A DNA stretch of 64,000 nt from Candidatus Poribacteria bacterium (GTDB taxonomy: Bacteria > Poribacteria > WGA-4E > PCPOR2b). The stretch is from contig OZ244042.1 of the NCBI GenBank assembly GCA_965215015.1, positions 4,128,001 to 4,192,000 on the forward strand, read 5' to 3'. Of the stretch, positions 3,501-48,679 are shown one piece after another (position 1 is the first letter of the stretch; the number at the start of each line of letters is the position of its first letter). Under the pieces are notes generated by a model that saw only the letters and a program-made list of their open reading frames with translations, was not told the DNA's origin and did no database searches. The position numbers and the translations under genes are program-made.

Positions 3501-6500
3501 TGAGTTGGATTCACGCGATTTTCAAAATTTGCCTGATTATCTGAGTAATCTTTTAATTCTGTTTAATCTGGAGGCACAAATTACTGGCGATCTAGTTCAA
3601 CCGGCGTTGACTGCCTCGGTTAATGCGACACAAAGGACGATGCAACTCTTGGATTTCCCTCAACCTGTTGAAGATGTGAGCGTCGCAGTTCAAATCTCAG
3701 CAGGCCAGAAGGCATCGCCTGACTTAATCGTAGTTAATCTGAAATCGGCGGATTGGCAGTTCGGAGGCGGTCAGTATCAGGCATCGGGGATTTGGCGTTT
3801 GCCCAAAACGGAACCGGGATTATCCCTGACCTCAATTATAGATACTCTGGAAGGGCACAATTCAGTCCAGTTTCAACTTTACGTCAATGGGGTAAATGTG
3901 GATTTCATAACGCCTCTGAACGATAGAATGAAACGAGGAAATTTCAATATAGAAAGTCGATCCAATATAGTGCTTGAACTACACGGTAGTGGCTATCGTC
4001 CCGACCAAATGTCAGCGACTCTCAGGTGTAGCGATCTGCGTACTAAGATTAACGGCCATGATGCGCGGAATATCAATGAGATTCAGCTCCATTTCACAGA
4101 TCGGAAATTCACGCTCAGACCAACCCAAATAGGTGAAGGAAGTGCTGTTTGGCTCAACGCTGCAGGTACTATCGACCTTGATGGAAATATGGACCTTCAT
4201 TTAGATTTGGATCGACTGCCTTATGGCGTGCTGCTGCCAGCAATAACACTAACACTTTTTGATCAATCTTTCCTGAAGTTTGAAGGTTTTCTGACGAGTC
4301 AAATTCGTGTACGTGGGGACCTTACAAATCCAATCATAACTGCAAAGTGGGAGTCGGATGGTTATATCGGAAACGCCAATCTTAAGGACAATGGAGGCGC
4401 AAGCTATCAGGAAAAATTGCTCTCCATCCAAAACACGCAACGGATTGTCGGTGTGAACAAGCAGCTAGAGGTATTTGGCACGATTCCAATCGATCTCGCC
4501 TTTCAACCAATAGATCTTGAAGATCGATTCCTAAATCTACCGATCGATTTGAAATTACGAGGGCAGCAGATTTCTTTGGTGCCCCTAGCGTTACTGTTGC
4601 CTCCGTTAATTGAACATGCCGATGGTATTGCTGATATAAACCTGAGAATACAGGGGACAACCGCTTCGCCTTACCCGCAAGGAAAGCTGTCGTTTCAAAG
4701 TGCCACCTTGAAGTTAGCGAACTTTGACATGCCAATTTCAAACGGGAAAGTTGAATTGCTGGCGGATAAGGGGGAAATTCGTATCCCTACACTCAGTTTT
4801 CAGGTGGGTCAAGGGGAGTATTCAGCAGAAATCAACTGTAAACTTGCTGGGCTTATCGCAACTGATTTTGAAATCTCCCGATTCAGCGTCTATAAAGCAA
4901 GAATTGCTGATTTTATCGGAAATCGATCAAGGTTGCTTAATCCCATTGTGTCGCGGTTTTTGAATCCCGAAGCGATTGGGACGGAGGTGATGTCAACCGA
5001 AGTGTTGAATGGATATATTACGGCGGAGGCCAGTTTGAAAATTCCAGTAAATCAGTTTCTTATCCCCGGCAAAACTGCATGGATTCCGACATTCATTAAG
5101 CCATTCAATCCACCAAATGTGATTAAGTATGTAACAGGTCAGCTAAATATTCAAAATATTCTAATTGAAGGGTTAGGTTATCAAATTCGTAACTCTAGGC
5201 CGATTGAGATTCAACTTGCAAACCAGAAGCTCAGCTTAGAAAACGGATTCAGCTTAGAAGATCAAAAATCGGTGCTAACCGAAGCCAAACGCCTGCGAGT
5301 CACAGGATTCGGAAGTTGGGAACTTGGTAAAAAATTGCTCTTTCATGTCGAAATGAAAAATCTTGATCTCGGCTTTATTTCGGGATTTCTGCCCGAAGCC
5401 TACGCCGTTCGTGGTTCTTTGAACTCCTCTCTTGATATACGTGGAACGGATGCTGAACCGAGGCTTTCCTTTAGGTGGGAAACCCCGGAACTGCGAATAA
5501 ACCAAGCAGAGGTTGATCAATTTACCGGTAGCGTCACGTATGAGGATCGAAAAATCCGAATTAGCGGAAAACAAAACGATGAGGCCCATCTGTCTATTGG
5601 GAAAAATCACGCCGCCCTATCTGTGCTGATTCCATTTCACCTATCCTTACTGGAATTCAAAGCTGAACCGTTACCAGAGGATATTGAAGGCGGATTAGAT
5701 ATAGCTATCGGAGATTTAGATTTCTTATCTCTCATTTTTCCTCAATTTGCTTTTACCGAAGGTACAGGGGCCCTTAATGCCACGCTTGGTGGTCGATTTG
5801 ACTCACCCGTGCTTAAAGGATCGACAAATTTAAGAGCCCTTGCGTTCGAGCTGCCAGATTCACATATTAGCTTAGAAAACGGAACAGCGCATCTCGATTT
5901 GACCGAGAGAGGTGTCAATATTCGACACATTACGGGAGATATGAACGATGGCACCTTCGAGATTAACGGAGTGATACAATCCGATTGGTTCAATGTACAG
6001 CGTATAGATGTCGTCGCTGAATTGAGTGAGGGTACCAAGTTTGAGAAACCCGGATTTTACCAACTTAGGTGTCAAAGCGTCAACTTACAGATGAAAGGCA
6101 CTGTCACGACAGATGGGAATCTCAAACTTCCACCCTTAAGAGGTTCAATCCGTGTCAAAGAAGGTCGATACGAGCAAGACTGGAAGCAGCTAGTTCAGGA
6201 TTTGGTGGATAAGGCAGCAGAGGTACAGTTTGAGGTTTGGTTCGATTACCCTATTGTGCGCAATCTCCAATTAGAGCTTGATATCATTGCCCCCAATAAC
6301 TTTTGGGTGGAATCAAATTTAGGGGAAATTGAGATTGAAACATCAATCAACGGTGAGATTGTTGGACCGATTCAAAAACCTATTTTTAGCGGACGCGTGG
6401 CCCTGTTAGAAGGTGAATTAGCTCTCTTTGGTGGTCATCAATTTGAGATTAAGGAAGGTTCGTATGTAGAAAACAAAAACGCACTAGAATTTAACCCGTG

Positions 6501-43500: not shown

Positions 43501-44628
43501 CTACCGGAACCAGTCATAATTGAGTCCCAGTGAACGATCCGCCAACGGCAACTCTACCCGAACACCACCCCGCGCCGAAGATTGTTTGAGTGCGATTTCA
43601 ACCTCAATTGCCACTGCAACCCTTCTACCTGAGTTTTTGGGTTCATCCAACCTACCTTCTATGCAATCTATCACATCCGCTAATCCGTAAATTGCACCGT
43701 AGGGACCGACGAACTGCGGATGGGGCCAGGGCATCTCCACTCGACTGACACCGTCAGGTGTTTCAACGTCCTGCCATAGCTTGAATCCGGTCGCCATTAT
43801 GGGAATAACTATTTCACCCGTGGTGCCAGTTACGCGTAGATGCGGTGCACCTGGACGAAAGTAGACAGCTAATTCACTTTCCGTAACCATCATCCCTTGA
43901 CCAGCAAATTCGTCGCTGCCCCCAGGTCCTTTGAATTCATCAGTGTCAGTGCCACGTCGCTCTTTGTCACCGATACCGATAACCCATGCGGGGGAGCTAT
44001 CTAAAAAGTATGACCAACTCTGATGTTGTGCGCCTGGGCGTGGTGCTTCAATGGAAACAACATCACCAATTGCACCGCTTGTAGCCAACTCCTTTGCCTT
44101 TGCAAACGACGGGTGAGTTGTCGAAATGGCACCACAGTTAAGCGGCACACCGGCGTCGGCGCATACCTTGACCATTCGGTCAGCTTCCTCAAGCGTGTGT
44201 GCCATCGGCTTTGCTGTCACAATCCCTTTTGCCCCATTCTCCACCGCCATACATGTCAAGTCTGCCCGTCCCTTGACGTTCGTGGCAACAGCGACGATAT
44301 CTAGCTTTTCGGTACGGAGCATTTCAGTTGCATCGGCATATAGTGTCTTGATGCCGTAACGTTCCTCGAACGCTTTTAGCCGTTTCTGATCGCGGTCAGC
44401 TGCAGCAACCAAATCTACCTCCGGCCGATCCCAGAACGCTTCGGAGTAGCTCGTGGGCAACCCCTCCCTGCCGGGGTGATCATGATGATAGATTTTGCGA
44501 TGAATCTCCAATTCAGGGGTCGGGCGGTCAACATCATCAATGTTGAAAAAATCGCCAATCCGCTCCGCCATATCATAGAGCATTCCCATCCAACCAAGCC
44601 CAATTACTCCTGCACGATACTTTGCCAT
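43501..44628 (-). CDS. Gfo/Idh/MocA family oxidoreductase
   Basis: IGLGWMG, TAKPMA; paralog of 26542-27648. Confidence 0.85.
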   Translation of the reverse strand: MAKYRAGVIGLGWMGMLYDMAERIGDFFNIDDVDRPTPELEIHRKIYHHDHPGREGLPTSYSEAFWDRPEVDLVAAADRDQKRLKAFEERYGIKTLYADATEMLRTEKLDIVAVATNVKGRADLTCMAVENGAKGIVTAKPMAHTLEEADRMVKVCADAGVPLNCGAISTTHPSFAKAKELATSGAIGDVVSIEAPRPGAQHQSWSYFLDSSPAWVIGIGDKERRGTDTDEFKGPGGSDEFAGQGMMVTESELAVYFRPGAPHLRVTGTTGEIVIPIMATGFKLWQDVETPDGVSRVEMPWPHPQFVGPYGAIYGLADVIDCIEGRLDEPKNSGRRVAVAIEVEIALKQSSARGGVRVELPLADRSLGLNYDWFR

Positions 44629-44671
44629 ATATCAACCCTCCTTACAGCATACAGTCCTAACTTTTCCCGTT

Positions 44672-45088
44672 TTACGTTTCACGTTCTATTTCCTGCATCA
44701 TGCCAGCAAATATCATGATATCTTGTTGGAAAGCTTCCGTAAAATCTTCTGATCGCTTTGTTTCAGCAAATCGATGGAATACCGTTTCTAATGCTTGGAG
44801 GAATCCCTCTGACTTACCTTCATCTTCAGCCTGTTGTTTCATTTGTTGAAGAAGCGTCATCTTAGCCGCTGTTTCCCGTTCTGTCTGTACTTCCTTTATT
44901 GATTTGTCAAATGTAACCCGAAGTGTTTCAACAATGTGGTATGCCATAGAACGGTTATATTTCTGTGAATCCCGTTTTGCCCCCTCATAAACATCAAGAG
45001 GTAACAATAGGCTAATTTGCTTCTTTAGTGAATCTTTGGGTTGGCGATATTCTTTCATTAAAATCTCCGAAATTATGGTATCAGACAC
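44672..45088 (-). CDS. Putative ribbon-helix-helix DNA-binding protein
   Basis: KKQISLLLPLDVYEGAKRDSQKYNRSMAYHIVETLR fits an RHH pattern; directly downstream of the integrase; AT-rich. Confidence 0.55.
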   Translation of the reverse strand: MSDTIISEILMKEYRQPKDSLKKQISLLLPLDVYEGAKRDSQKYNRSMAYHIVETLRVTFDKSIKEVQTERETAAKMTLLQQMKQQAEDEGKSEGFLQALETVFHRFAETKRSEDFTEAFQQDIMIFAGMMQEIERET

Positions 45089-45195
45089 TATGCTAACACT
45101 AACATCAAAATTATTGTATATAGCATATCATTAAAATTCGGAAATGTATAGTAAAATTATTCGCCATAAAATGCCATGCTTAACTATGTGAAATA

Positions 45196-46104
45196 TTACT
45201 CCCATGATATACTTTCCATAGTGCTGCGTAAATCTTGTTCGGTAGGCATAGTATAAATCGCAGTTGTATTCACATTAGAATGTCCTAAAATTTTAGACAC
45301 TCTATCAATAGGCTGCCCAGCATCAATTAAATTCTTGGCACAGGTATGTCTAAATACGTGTGGGGAAATATGCTTTATCTTCGCTATATAGGCATATTTC
45401 TGAATAATGTAACGAACACCACGGTCTGTCAACGGCATCCGTTTCTGCCCGTAAAACAGGAAGCGTTCTTTCTCAGGATTTGGACCGGCTACTAATATCC
45501 TTTGCCCATTGCTTTCAAACGATTTTAGATAATTCCTCAAAACGCCTATGACAGTTGAGTTTAATGGGACATTACGTCGCTTCGTACCTTTGCCCTCACG
45601 AACAGTAAGCATATTACTATTTATCGATAAACTAATATCGGAAATTCTTAAATTACAAAGTTCACTAACACGCATGCCGGTATGCAGCAGCATTGTAATA
45701 ATTGCTAAATCCCTCAAATTTCCGGACCTACGCACCGCTCGTAACAATCCCAGCTGCTCTTTACGTTCCAACGCCCGCGGGGCAAGTGGTTCTTCAGCAA
45801 CGTTCCGTATGCCTTCAGCAGGATTATCCAGAATTAGGTCATTTTGCTCTGCCCACTGGCAGAAACTGGAAATACTAATTAAACTGCGATTAATCGTCGA
45901 GGGCTTCTTGCCCCGGTCGAGCATTGCATTGCGATAGTCAATTATTTCCATCGGCGTGATACTTTCAAGTTCAAGTGCTTCCCCAGTTGCGTGTTGGAAC
46001 CACCGTGAAAATGAGCGAAGATCCGCTATATACGCTTTAATGGTCTGCTCAGATTTATCCTGATCATAAAGATAATCACTATAATCTTGCAATAAATCGT
46101 TCAT
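45196..46104 (-). CDS. Tyrosine recombinase/integrase (XerD/TnpI-like)
   Basis: N-terminal SAM-like domain; complete catalytic set GMRVSE, GKG.K, HVFRH, LGH, TAIY. Confidence 0.95.
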   Translation of the reverse strand: MNDLLQDYSDYLYDQDKSEQTIKAYIADLRSFSRWFQHATGEALELESITPMEIIDYRNAMLDRGKKPSTINRSLISISSFCQWAEQNDLILDNPAEGIRNVAEEPLAPRALERKEQLGLLRAVRRSGNLRDLAIITMLLHTGMRVSELCNLRISDISLSINSNMLTVREGKGTKRRNVPLNSTVIGVLRNYLKSFESNGQRILVAGPNPEKERFLFYGQKRMPLTDRGVRYIIQKYAYIAKIKHISPHVFRHTCAKNLIDAGQPIDRVSKILGHSNVNTTAIYTMPTEQDLRSTMESISWE

Positions 46105-46117
46105 TTTTTACCTCTTC

Positions 46118-46245
46118 TTATCGGACATTTTTTTTAAGAGATCAGTTATTATGCGGGTTAAAACGCTGAAATTTAGACAATCGTTTCACTTATCGGATAT
46201 TTTTCGGGGAAATAATGTCCGATAATGATAGTTATCGGACATTTT
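46118..46245. other. Putative recombination site: palindromic core plus accessory half-sites
   Basis: Core AATGTCCGATAA-TGATAG-TTATCGGACATT (46214-46243); extra arms TTATCGGACATTTT (46118), TTATGCGGGTT (46149, degenerate), TTATCGGATATTTT (46190). Confidence 0.8.
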
Positions 46246-46380
46246 GGGTTTTTAAAGGGGAGATGCAGGGCTAAATGGCGCATCCCCTATTTTTTTGAAA
46301 AGTGATCGACAGGGCGTTTTAATCCGTGATAGAATGAAAATGTATCGATACTATGTCACTATAGCCTATAGGAGGGCATA

Positions 46381-47040
46381 ATGCAAAGGTTAATGCCGAA
46401 GATAGCTGTTGTTTCAATGGCTGTCATTTTGATTGTTGTGGTTGGAGTGATTATCCATCTCAGGAACGCGCCTGTGGAGCATGTAAAGGTCTATGAGGTA
46501 CAATACGAGATCGAGGCGCCTGAGCCAATTGTGGTTAGATCTGCTTCGCGTGTGCCGGCATCGTCGGCGGATGTGTCAGAAACGGCCGAGGCGTGGAGTG
46601 AACCGGAAGAGGCAACACATTACGATGACACGCCGGTAACATCTGAATTTATGGAGGTGCGCGGTGCTGAGGAGGTCGCTGGGGCTGAGGAGGACGTTTG
46701 GGATGAGTTACCGGCTGCGGCAATGAACCCGCCGACCCCGCCGACACGCGGTCTAGTTACTCTAATAGATTCGTTCCCAGACGATGGCACCTACGAAGAA
46801 TTTGAATTGCGCCTAACGGATTATGCGTTCACATACTATCCGTTGACAATGCTTGAACCTGAAGAGGTTCGCCTTCTTGATCCACGAGCGAAGGCGGCAT
46901 ACGATCGACAGAAAGCCGCATTCCATAAAGAGTTCGTAGATATGTTCAAAGAGGACTTCGCATCTATGTCTTCCGATGTGCTGTCTATGATTACCCCAGA
47001 TATGGCAACCTTATTTGAAAAGGAAGGGATATTACCATGA
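46381..47040 (+). CDS. Hypothetical membrane-anchored acidic protein (cassette ORF1)
   Basis: AGGAGG RBS, N-terminal TM, Glu/Pro-rich linker, helical C-terminal domain. Confidence 0.7.
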   Translation: MQRLMPKIAVVSMAVILIVVVGVIIHLRNAPVEHVKVYEVQYEIEAPEPIVVRSASRVPASSADVSETAEAWSEPEEATHYDDTPVTSEFMEVRGAEEVAGAEEDVWDELPAAAMNPPTPPTRGLVTLIDSFPDDGTYEEFELRLTDYAFTYYPLTMLEPEEVRLLDPRAKAAYDRQKAAFHKEFVDMFKEDFASMSSDVLSMITPDMATLFEKEGILP

Positions 47041-47198
47041 AGATCGCAGTTGGTGTTGTACTTCTACTCGCGATTGCATGTTACTTCCTATTACCTGTCT
47101 TGGTTCCTCCGGTTGTAGCTCACGGCAGTTGTCAAAGCCTGCAGGCTGAATGGGCCCGCAAAGAGGCAGACTCGGATCCCCCTTTTTTTGTCCGATAA
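47037..47198 (+). CDS. 53-aa ORF with signal peptide (cassette ORF2, possibly truncated)
   Basis: ATGA overlap with ORF1; MKIAVGVVLLLAIACYFLLPVLVPPVVAHGSCQSLQAEWARKEADSDPPFFVR*; the stop TAA lies in the left arm of core site 2. Confidence 0.55.
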   Translation: MKIAVGVVLLLAIACYFLLPVLVPPVVAHGSCQSLQAEWARKEADSDPPFFVR

Positions 47199-47218
47199 CG
47201 TAAATTATCGGACATTTT
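47189..47218. other. Second palindromic recombination core site
   Basis: TGTCCGATAA-CGTAAA-TTATCGGACA(TTTT): same arms as site 1, different 6-bp spacer. Confidence 0.8.
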
Positions 47219-47366
47219 ACAAGAGAAGGTCTGTGTAGTAGGCAGAATTAGAATGAGTAATTTCAACATAGACTATAATTTTACCGAAAACTCAATTCGA
47301 CGTCAACACTTTTATCTTCATTCATTTGCCGCCTTGTTCATTTATGCTGGACAATCATAAATAGTT

Positions 47367-47475
47367 GAGGAGTGCTCATAATTATTGTCTGAATCAGGAG
47401 ACTCAGGATTAACGGATTCACAAGATACCCAGTAACGCAGCACAGGCTTACAATACCTACTTATGAGCACCCCTC
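47367..47475. mobile_element. MITE (15-bp TIR, 8-bp TSD)
   Basis: TIRs GAGGAGTGCTCATAA / TTATGAGCACCCCTC; TSD AAATAGTT at 47359-47366 and 47476-47483. Confidence 0.8.
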
Positions 47476-47522
47476 AAATAGTTAGTGTATATGACTTAGC
47501 ATACGATGATGGAAATGGACTC

Positions 47523-47690
47523 GTAGCCGCAGGTTTCCTAACCTGTGGGCCCGCCGTCCGTTGAAGGGAGACATAGCAGTAGGCATACTCCTTATGCCGT
47601 AACCCCTCGTCGCTACAGAGCCCCAATGGATCGGGATTTCCGCTGCGCTGCAACTTGCCCTCGATTCATCGGGGGTGCCTAACCTGTGAT
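47523..47690. repeat. Cluster of REP-like palindromes
   Basis: GCAGGTTTCCTAACCTGT, AGTAGGCATACTCCTTATGCCG, CCCCAATGGATCGGG, CTCGATTCATCGGG. Confidence 0.55.
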
Positions 47691-47748
47691 CACTGCTGCG
47701 TAATTTCTATAACAGATGCAATTCCCCTATTCATTTATGTGTTTGGAC

Positions 47749-47777
47749 TTGACATCAAATTCGATGAATGCTATCAT
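47749..47777 (+). promoter_or_regulatory. Sigma70 promoter for ruvX
   Basis: TTGACA-17 bp-TATCAT; supports the later start at 47896. Confidence 0.6.
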
Positions 47778-47895
47778 CCGAACTATTAGCCGTCCTCGAT
47801 GGTATAGCAATCAGAGCCTCCCTGCTGACAAACATGTGTCAGTGATAATGGTAGTCACATCAACCCTTAAACTTACAAGCAATGTTTCACCAATT

Positions 47896-48345
47896 ATGCC
47901 GATTATTCTAGGATTAGACATTGGCGATGCACGGACTGGTGTAGCGATTAGTGATGAATTGGGCATTGCCGCTCACCCACTCTGCACGATTCAACGTAAA
48001 AGCAGAAAAGCATTACTGACAGAGTTACAGGAGTTGGCTACCGCTCACAAAGTCGAACGGATTGTCGTAGGGTTGCCCCTTCAACTCAATGGTGAGACAG
48101 GAGCTCAAGCACAGAAAATTAAAAAATTTGCAGAAAAGCTAGCGCAGCACGTTAATCTGCCAATCGTCTTCTGGGACGAAAGTTTCACCACCTTTGAAGC
48201 AACACAAATTTTGAGGGGCACTAAAAAACGGCGTAAAAAGCGAAAGCAAATCGTCGATCAGGTCGCTGCTGTACTGATTCTTGATGCGTATCTGGAGGAA
48301 TTACGCAACTCACGCAGGACAGATGATTCGGACAAAGGGACATAA
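47896..48345 (+). CDS. ruvX: Holliday junction resolvase RuvX / pre-16S rRNA nuclease YqgF
   Basis: ILGLDIGDARTGVAISD, VVGLP, WDESFTT, VDQVAAVLIL. Confidence 0.92.
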   Translation: MPIILGLDIGDARTGVAISDELGIAAHPLCTIQRKSRKALLTELQELATAHKVERIVVGLPLQLNGETGAQAQKIKKFAEKLAQHVNLPIVFWDESFTTFEATQILRGTKKRRKKRKQIVDQVAAVLILDAYLEELRNSRRTDDSDKGT

Positions 48346-48483
48346 AAAATGGGTATGGAAGATATTGAGATCGACAGTTTAGCTACATGTACTTCCACAA
48401 TCGTAAGCTTGATAGGAACCCCTTCATAACTGATTGACGAATGCAATTTTTTTCTTGCGTCAAAGCGTTTTTTAGCATATCAT

Positions 48484-48679
48484 ATGTTATTTGAGGCTAA
48501 TCGGAGGCCCTTGTTTGAACGCGGTTATAATAAACTGATCGGTCTCTTGGTGCCTCTGATTGTTGTGGGGTTGGGCAGTGGAATATATCATCCTTCCTAG
48601 GTTGGATCAGATAGCAACGTCAGATCCATCAGAAGTAGTTAACAAAAACGCCCGTAAAGCGATTGCCCGCCTGAGATAA
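48484..48679 (+). pseudogene. Possible collapsed remnant of a HEAT-repeat protein
   Basis: Short TM-containing ORF followed, in another frame, by LDQIATSDPSEVVNKNARKAIARLR*, a HEAT-like terminal repeat. Confidence 0.3.

Follow-up and report, generated by a model that had tools for sequence, protein, structure and literature searches.

A TnpI/IRS-type recombinase and site on a Poribacteria chromosome, with a species-specific gene module inserted at the core

The TnpI recombinases of Tn4430, Tn5401 and TnBth4, Tn3-family transposons of the Bacillus cereus group, act at a composite internal resolution site (IRS), whose definition is taken here from the available portions of PMC2847244 and PMC7157771. 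According to these portions, the inverted repeats IR1-IR2 form the core, which is cut 6 bp apart, and additional TnpI protomers bound at the direct repeats DR1-DR2 give the reaction its selectivity for resolution. Sites consisting of the core only recombine in a relaxed manner, giving fusion, deletion and inversion, and accessory-site complexes can force exchange between cores with mismatched centres (PMC2847244, same portions). In the available part of PMC7157771, TnpI bound at its site in Tn5401 is described as modulating tnpI and tnpA expression (citing Baum 1999), and TnpI/IRS is described in only three Bacillus transposons. Here we describe a tyrosine recombinase gene, its adjoining site and a gene module bounded by two palindromic cores in Candidatus Poribacteria bacterium (GTDB lineage Bacteria; Poribacteria; WGA-4E; PCPOR2b). 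They lie in a stretch of 64,000 nucleotides (assembly GCA_965215015.1, contig OZ244042.1, positions 4,128,001 to 4,192,000 of the forward strand), referred to here as the window, and positions below are those of the window unless stated otherwise. A first, sequence-only reading had proposed a novel single-enzyme platform for gene capture or exchange. We consider it probable that the locus is a chromosomal unit of the TnpI/IRS type, that it likely serves dimer resolution, that a module was inserted later, and that the same enzyme-site pair acts on core-only sites elsewhere.

The recombinase (45196-46104, minus strand, 302 aa) is TnpI-like and Xer-like, with a match to PF00589 (1.1e-37, 129.9 bits) and a SAM-like N-terminal domain. 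Its placement rests on pairwise and hidden Markov model scores, not on a tree. It aligns over 293 of its 302 residues with a 306-aa recombinase in the B. thuringiensis plasmid NZ_CP083162.1 (35% identity, 175 bits, E 1e-57), the catalytic motif blocks align with TnpI, and the Bacillus gene sits directly upstream of a Tn3-family transposase in a Tn5401-type element. The best plasmid relatives, at 35-39% identity, include recombinases of B. thuringiensis; one plasmid match, NZ_CP010092.1, is the record called TnBth4 in the available part of PMC7157771. Against chains of E. coli XerD or P. abyssi XerA the score was 90.6 bits, and the NCBIfam models for XerC, XerD and XerA gave 196.8, 194.6 and 182.3 bits, all below their cut-offs of 335, 330 and 220. 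Among the 12 PF00589 matches in the genome the recombinase is the sole Xer-like gene (next-best score with the XerD model 74 vs 194 bits), as it is in 28 other relatives that carry an orthologue. The gene is intact and lacks the IntI-specific insertion, as the sequence-only reading had noted; the integron integrase model TIGR02249 matched it in two stretches with 91.8 bits, against a cut-off of 265.

Upstream of the gene lies core site 1 (46214-46243, no strand assigned), a perfect 12-6-12 palindrome, AATGTCCGATAA-TGATAG-TTATCGGACATT, whose spacer TGATAG occupies 46226-46231. Two accessory half-sites stand in the same orientation between this core and the recombinase start codon (46104): DR1 at 46190-46199 (minus strand; TTATCGGATA on the plus strand, one mismatch) and DR2 at 46118-46127 (minus strand; TTATCGGACA on the plus strand, exact match), the latter 13 bp ahead of the start codon and over the ribosome-binding region. 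Core site 1, DR1 and DR2 make up a complete IRS-like site within the 126-bp region 46118-46243. Core site 2 (47189-47214, no strand assigned) is a perfect 10-6-10 palindrome, TGTCCGATAA-CGTAAA-TTATCGGACA, without accessory half-sites; both palindromes had been named by the earlier reading and both are present on direct reading of the sequence. The half-site, with up to one mismatch, has 9 matches in the window vs 3.81 expected, and six of the nine fall in 46118-47214. With up to two mismatches, the full palindrome occurs at four places in the 5.94-Mb genome vs none for the reversed control, and the relaxed 6-6-6 form CGATAA-N6-TTATCG returns exactly those four places, with no match when the spacer is N4, N5, N7 or N8. 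Exact half-sites elsewhere in the genome are at chance level (18 vs 11.6 expected).

The Bacillus motif and layout were taken by direct reading of the Tn5401-type element. Upstream of Bacillus tnpI stands GTCCGCTAA-N6-TTAGCGGAC, followed by the direct repeats GTCCGCTAA and GTCCACTAA ahead of the ATG, and the element has more motif copies close to its ends (6 matches vs 0.27 expected). The equivalent in the window is GTCCGATAA-N6-TTATCGGAC plus two direct half-sites, equal in relative order and orientation, with DR1 and DR2 equivalent in position and orientation to the DR1 and DR2 of the Bacillus element. The Poribacteria motif GTCCGATAA is the Bacillus motif with one base changed, and the common motif is GTCCGMTAA. 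The spacings differ, being core, 28, DR1, 26, DR2, 27, ATG in the Bacillus element and core, 16 bp, DR1, 62 bp, DR2, 13 bp, ATG in the window. The locus shares with Tn4430, Tn5401 and TnBth4 a homologous recombinase, the motif as an inverted pair around a 6-bp centre, two directly repeated accessory motifs that separate the core from the start of the gene and are oriented like the distal arm, and a site that overlaps the expression signals of the recombinase gene. Judged by this homology, the recombinase with its four motifs, two inverted and two direct, is a chromosomal homologue of the TnpI/IRS resolution unit. The novelty claimed for the platform does not hold, since motif, N6 core, direct repeats and 35% protein identity match a known transposon resolution site, an outcome that the earlier reading had itself listed as refuting. 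From the earlier description as a dif/Xer architecture with symmetric arms and one enzyme, the single Xer-like recombinase and the ATAA-N6-TTAT core stand; the unit of recombinase and site is of the TnpI/IRS type. Unlike the transposons, the Poribacteria unit has no tnpA, terminal inverted repeats or toxin-antitoxin pair, and the Tn3 transposase family PF01526 had no match in the whole genome. It is chromosomal, single-copy, syntenic and vertically inherited in two families, with a conserved gene for a 128-aa protein downstream and extra core-only sites across the chromosome.

Conservation of the unit was assessed in 46 orthologous loci, 22 from an order-level sample and 24 from further public contigs. 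Recombinase and adjoining 128-aa gene are kept in 22/22 and 24/24 of these. All 22 order-level loci and 23 of the 24 contigs also have one palindrome, some 110 bp ahead of the recombinase start codon. Within the genus, the unit lies between the same Gfo/Idh/MocA gene and ruvX, with syntenic neighbours that include an mltG-like gene. The orthologue is single-copy in 24 of the 25 sampled genomes of family f1 and 10/10 of f3 and is rare outside these two families (1/100 in f2, 1/4 in f4, 0/11 in f5-f9). Both arms and both half-sites are invariant in 21/21 aligned genomes, DR1 having the form TTATCGGA, with protein identity falling to 61%. The resident spacer of the relatives is GATTAG in most, with T-A at spacer positions 4-5 invariant and its orientation to the gene fixed. 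The locus without a site belongs to the closest species searched, G003 (OY282444.1), which has lost the palindrome and DR1 and has the ruvX-side flank joined to DR2 (L037 ~5900-6000). This loss is a 114-bp deletion between two direct half-sites, the arm and DR2; the recombinase gene is intact, and a PHP-type phosphatase-like gene stands between the ruvX-side flank and ruvX.

Single-recombinase Xer/dif units offer a second comparison. In XerS/difSL and XerH/difH, the dif site lies beside the xer gene. These units and archaeal XerA/dif have in common with the Poribacteria locus one Xer-like enzyme, here scoring best with XerC, XerD and XerA models, an ATAA-N6-TTAT core beside the gene, and a primary site that occurs once per chromosome, roughly opposite dnaA. 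In this genome 0.487 of the circle separates dnaA (1.125 Mb) from the site (4.174 Mb), and the accessory-equipped site occurs once per genome. Measured around the circle, dnaA and the site are 0.46-0.50 of a chromosome length apart in 11 of the 12 contigs of chromosome size from the genus, and in other genera 0.43-0.49 (g5, 4/4), 0.36-0.45 (g10, 4/4) and 0.29 (g4, n=1). Because there is no transposon, and the unit is single-copy, vertically inherited, served by the sole Xer-like enzyme and placed near the dnaA antipode, its housekeeping role is most likely chromosome dimer resolution, with the TnpI-type accessory motifs giving directionality. Its conservation and synteny in relatives without the module make resolution more likely than gene capture as the primary role. 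Unlike the known single-Xer units, the Poribacteria enzyme scores below every Xer equivalog cut-off, the terminus position comes without confirmation from skew, and the TnpI-type half-sites would make directionality independent of FtsK. As a separate observation, this genome and most of the relatives searched have, in addition to the 464-aa dnaA, a shorter gene of DnaA type (here 395 aa, 145 bits; genome G000:C1:3560625-3561089).

Several observations count against a role in dimer resolution. Cumulative GC skew, the orientation of long open reading frames (ORFs) and the strand asymmetry of 4-, 6- and 8-mers gave no two-replichore pattern in this genome, and the terminus could not be placed because local segments dominate the skews. 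G003 has lost the core, and its recombinase is only 0.14 of the chromosome from dnaA. The sister family f2 is without the enzyme (1/100 with it) and without a XerD-like match at E<=1e-30 (0/6), so that an Xer-type enzyme is not indispensable in the phylum. Finally, the count of dnaA distances overstates the support, as genomes within the genus are not independent.

Between the two cores lies a module of 945 bp (46244-47188, plus strand) with its own promoter-like site (46306-46335) and two ORFs. ORF219 (46381-47040, plus strand) has an N-terminal membrane helix and no family; ORF53 (47037-47198, plus strand) overlaps it, and its stop codon lies inside an arm of core site 2. The sequence-only reading was right about a two-ORF module of about 950 bp read rightward, and GC content is 0.48-0.58 within it vs 0.32-0.48 across the recombinase gene. 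In the relatives, 45 of the 46 orthologous loci have a single site, G003 having none, and in most of them ruvX directly follows it. The flanks to the left of core site 1, including DR1 and DR2, and to the right of core site 2 are homologous to both flanks of this single site. The segment 47215-47361 (no strand assigned) is the resident right flank of the ancestral single site and forms a conserved leader upstream of ruvX; left flanks of the relatives' loci L038-L046 map to genome positions 4175725-4176322. The 945 bp between the window sites have no counterpart in the orthologous loci, none of which (0/46) carries ORF219 or ORF53 by tblastn, or a second site. The discrete module of the earlier reading is thus an insertion found only in this species and bounded exactly by two core copies, with core site 2 as its distal junction.

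An insertion bounded exactly by two cores is the product expected from a circle with one core fusing with the resident core. The centre of core site 1, TGATAG, resembles resident centres of the relatives such as GGATAG and TGATAC, and core site 2 has a foreign-type spacer; a resident-type centre at site 1 and a foreign one at site 2 are as heteroduplex segregation after exchange between unlike centres would give. The exact 26-mer of core site 2 had no match in JGI metagenome contigs, and no tRNA, tmRNA or Rfam gene was found as an integration target. Relatives of ORF219 occur in 6 of 151 phylum genomes, and one, at 37% identity, lies within a site-bounded cassette at another locus of G014; metagenome scans gave 88 pattern matches, none of which was confirmed as a relative.

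By homology with TnpI of Tn4430 and Tn5401, we infer that four recombinase protomers bind the four motifs, with strand cutting and exchange where the 6-bp centre meets the arms. The pair of accessory motifs would confer selectivity for resolving directly repeated full sites, and the motif over the ribosome-binding region would let the enzyme throttle its own synthesis; DR2 is likely, on this prediction, to double as the autoregulation site of the recombinase. A circular module with one core-only site (CGTAAA) would have joined the resident core through 'relaxed' recombination of core with core. Next to the recombinase this would have left a resident-type core with intact accessory motifs, and towards ruvX a copy of the core only. 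Other core-only sites in Poribacteria genomes, which bound variable modules and an invertible-looking segment of surface-protein genes, are probably further substrates of the same system. The properties described for TnpI in the available portions of PMC2847244 and PMC7157771, with resolution selectivity from accessory motifs and promiscuity of core-only sites, fit the Poribacteria pattern.

Some features of the insertion tell against such a fusion. The window spacers TGATAG and CGTAAA are unrelated, which is unfavourable for classical tyrosine-recombinase exchange and should make excision inefficient. The nearest homologue of ORF219 (47% identity, G017) stands at a place without sites. The earlier reading had suggested looking for circular or empty forms; in four runs from two studies, compared over 44000-48500, the contigs all span 44000-47395, include the module and contain neither an empty-site nor a circle joint, although rare forms would escape notice in contigs. 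The listed years of the two studies lie five years apart, and the module is present in both. In the more divergent pair of runs, X1 and X2, there are 26 substitutions and 7 indels over 3396 bp, with differences clustered just within the left end of the module and with the site 1 centre GGATAC (2 of 6 positions changed, arms unchanged); core site 2 is unchanged in all four runs. Gene capture or exchange, as first proposed, has the exact site-bounded insertion in its favour and the unrelated spacers against it, and any ongoing exchange here would be conjectural.

The scan of related genomes that the sequence-only reading had called for returned similar sites bounding variable gene modules. With up to one mismatch allowed, 35 of the 41 order-level genomes carry the motif, with 1-10 places per genome, and the control has no match. 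At a rhodanese locus in four species, the right flank is 88-91% identical over >2.2 kb and only 0-94 bp of the left flank align; the left flanks being unrelated, homology stops exactly at the site. Genes on the variable side include GmrSD, HNH, a C5 methylase accompanied by a HATPase/SduA_C protein, DUF4268, RNase H, T5orf172-like genes and insertion sequence (IS) elements, with more sites between them. Arrays of sites with one or two small genes between consecutive sites were found in six genomes (G013, G022, G012, G004, G014 and G036). Identical 26-mers, centre and arm variants included, recur at unrelated loci of one genome, and sites with equal centres have unrelated flanks in three species. 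Of 32 non-primary sites in genus relatives outside the FG-GAP locus described below, most have one or both 1.2-kb flanks without a counterpart here. These patterns hint that these Poribacteria swap gene modules at such sites, and we infer that the recombinase drives the exchange.

At the rhodanese locus of G012, G018, G002, G008 and G004 (loci L064, L075, L076, L077 and L080), a defence-gene island of 4.6-6.2 kb, differing per species, lies between a conserved left gene and the palindromic site; about 85 bp further on come a half-site and the rhodanese gene. The centre of this orthologous site differs by species, being TATTTC or AATTCA. In the present genome the rhodanese gene (genome positions 735821-736675) is present, and the site and island are absent.

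A 29-bp exact inverted repeat of the site, with centres GAACAA/TTGTTC, was observed at genome G000:C1:247562-251691 (L005 4563-8692). It flanks 4.1 kb with two paralogous FG-GAP surface-protein genes with type IX secretion system (T9SS) tails, and the neighbours of this segment are a gene of 947 aa and a LamG gene. One of the sites has a strong promoter-like element immediately outside it, and the other site has a second such element immediately inside. Species differ in what the locus holds: this genome has two FG-GAP genes, G011 has four, and G003 has one together with a DUF6785 gene. Among 17 genus genomes the first site is kept in 13 and a well-preserved second site in four, the second site of G002 being degenerate (5 mismatches). 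In 4/4 inverted pairs one centre is the reverse complement of the other, and the pairs fall into two types, GAACAA/TTGTTC and GAAAAC/GTTTTC. Such co-variation of centres would fit sites recombining with each other by inversion, and the FG-GAP segment is a candidate invertible (phase-variable) segment.

These site-linked patterns bear on whether the sites take part in exchange at all. The unit might only resolve dimers, with the module and the islands arising by illegitimate recombination, other mobile elements or homologous exchange between 26-bp repeats. This would agree with the heterologous spacers of the two window sites, with a module that appears stable across two studies five years apart, and with contigs of four runs in which no circle, empty site or inversion was seen. 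Islands also hold IS transposases, and the G003 deletion between two 10-bp direct half-sites is of the kind that slippage gives. However, the window module has complete cores at both ends, sites stand at many cassette junctions, and repeats of 26 bp are short for RecA-dependent exchange. The co-variation of spacers in inverted pairs and the re-use of identical spacers at unrelated loci fit exchange within sites, and we consider a purely passive role of the sites unlikely.

A second alternative is that palindromes and half-sites are transcription-factor operators, bound by the recombinase acting as a repressor only or by the 128-aa protein, with no recombination. The sites would then mark a regulon of secreted, defence and accessory genes, and the module would have brought or acquired its own operator. 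In keeping with this, sites often stand between a promoter-like element and a downstream gene, as at the L005 sites and the rhodanese locus, and a half-site lies immediately ahead of the start codon of both the recombinase gene and the rhodanese gene. The 128-aa protein is weakly, below threshold, similar to ribbon-helix-helix (RHH)/Arc proteins, and the expression effect of TnpI binding in Tn5401 (available part of PMC7157771, citing Baum 1999) is a precedent. Operators leave unexplained the insertion bounded exactly by two site copies, the homology break at the site in four species, the identical 26-mers at unrelated loci, the co-varying spacers of inverted pairs, and the strict N6, which a proven recombination core has as well. 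The two functions are compatible, as TnpI sites serve both regulation and recombination; operator function as the sole role appears quite unlikely to us, and by analogy with Tn5401 regulation is probably an added function of the site. That the palindromes are RNA hairpins, intrinsic terminators or processing sites ending transcription units, is very improbable: both window palindromes form stable folds (-15 to -20 kcal/mol, z -3.2 to -7.9), site 1 looks like a terminator when read on the plus strand and site 2 follows ORF53 and is itself followed by TTTTA, but nothing is transcribed into site 1 on that strand, T-runs are missing at the L005 sites and many others, isolated half-sites are conserved too, and the sequence matches a protein-binding recombination core.

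Taken with recombination at these sites as the preferred reading, the module resembles the integrative mobile elements exploiting Xer (IMEX) and the dif (pdif) modules of Acinetobacter (PMC6449649, PMC13141974, PMC12907356 and PMC11705084, in their available parts). Common to both are gene modules that encode no recombinase and have the core site of the host recombinase at either end, genes of accessory or defence type, module arrays, and inverted flanking sites, as at the FG-GAP locus. In the window, a recombinase-less module stands between two core copies, with a single empty site in 45 of the 46 relatives' loci. Unlike the Acinetobacter modules, which use XerC and XerD with asymmetric arms on plasmids and chromosomes, those described here would depend on one enzyme with palindromic arms, their sites are chromosomal, and their hosts are uncultured sponge-associated Poribacteria of another phylum. 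Orientation would be coded only by the 6-bp centre.

With integrons (IntI, attI, attC) the locus has in common a divergent tyrosine recombinase, an adjoining primary site and a promoter-proximal gene module, with cassette-like arrays elsewhere. In contrast to integrons there are no attC-type imperfect hairpins, whose absence the earlier reading had recorded correctly: both junctions are full double-stranded copies of the palindromic core. The module also has its own promoter-like site, and the arrays are not beside the recombinase. An integron reading was rejected on these junctions and on the missing IntI-specific insertion (91.8 bits against 265).

What is known, then, are TnpI/IRS, single-Xer/dif units, IMEX and dif modules; what is new is a species-specific module inserted at the core, and comparative evidence that core-only sites organise accessory modules. 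A full-text literature search returned no paper linking Poribacteria with a tyrosine recombinase, and none of the matches listed for Tn5401, TnpI or the 12-bp motif was about Poribacteria. A chromosomal, vertically inherited homologue in sponge-associated Poribacteria widens the TnpI/IRS family and offers a candidate answer to dimer resolution in these genomes, which lack canonical XerC/XerD. To our knowledge, module exchange at Xer-type sites, as in dif modules and IMEX, is known mainly from Acinetobacter and a few pathogens. A single-enzyme version with palindromic arms, bounding defence islands and surface-protein genes, would make such exchange more general, and the strict 10-6-10 site is a simple handle for accessory modules in metagenome-assembled genomes.

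More tentatively, and with more doubt than belief, we suggest that two Poribacteria families run chromosome-wide module exchange and switching on a single domesticated TnpI-like recombinase. The full site would serve resolution, core-only palindromes would carry their 6-bp centres as compatibility labels, and modules of defence, surface-protein and small uncharacterised genes would be integrated, swapped from locus to locus and genome to genome, and inverted. If so, an uncultured symbiont phylum would have arrived independently at a platform resembling integrons or dif modules, and the window module would be a captured cassette at the primary site. Bacillus TnpI might then derive from such chromosomal systems, or the reverse, and integrase-less phages may also exploit core-only sites.

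Two related phage-like contigs from IMG/VR (L129 6062-6085 and L131 1550-1573; GC 0.45-0.46; methylase and primase-like genes) carry a perfect extended-arm core with a half-site about 95 bp away. Neither of these two records has a PF00589 gene, and they may be integrase-less phages using a host enzyme of this type. The palindrome occurs in six IMG/VR contigs, four of them with a GC of 0.54-0.63 vs 0.49 for this genome. Among 151 Poribacteria genomes, just one has a match to the primase-like protein of these contigs, and a weak one (36% identity), so that a Poribacteria host would be conjectural.

The conserved 128-aa partner gene (44672-45058, minus strand), downstream of the recombinase, has no Pfam or NCBIfam family. 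Comparison of 24 orthologues (82% mean column identity) places its start most likely at the second ATG (45058), the methionine of MKEYRQ. The earlier reading had an RHH-like gene here; the leftward gene beside the recombinase is confirmed, its 138-aa ORF from 45088 likely starts at 45058, and the RHH fold is neither confirmed nor excluded. An AlphaFold model (pLDDT, the predicted local distance difference test score, 84) is all-helical as a monomer and had no PDB fold match at E<=0.001, and atlas leads to RHH/Arc all score below 0.9. The protein possibly has a DNA-binding accessory or regulatory role.

Between the flank of site 2 and ruvX, positions 47362-47730 hold an inserted patchwork of short interspersed repeats (units of ~50-130 bp, up to ~67 genome copies). 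Contig depth is 5-30x higher there, all short-read contigs end in it, and the relatives are without a patchwork at this place. At 47655-47900, about 60 N-terminal residues of the long 209-aa ruvX ORF align in another frame in several relatives; the true start of ruvX is probably near MPIILGLDIG, the upstream part being conserved non-coding leader.

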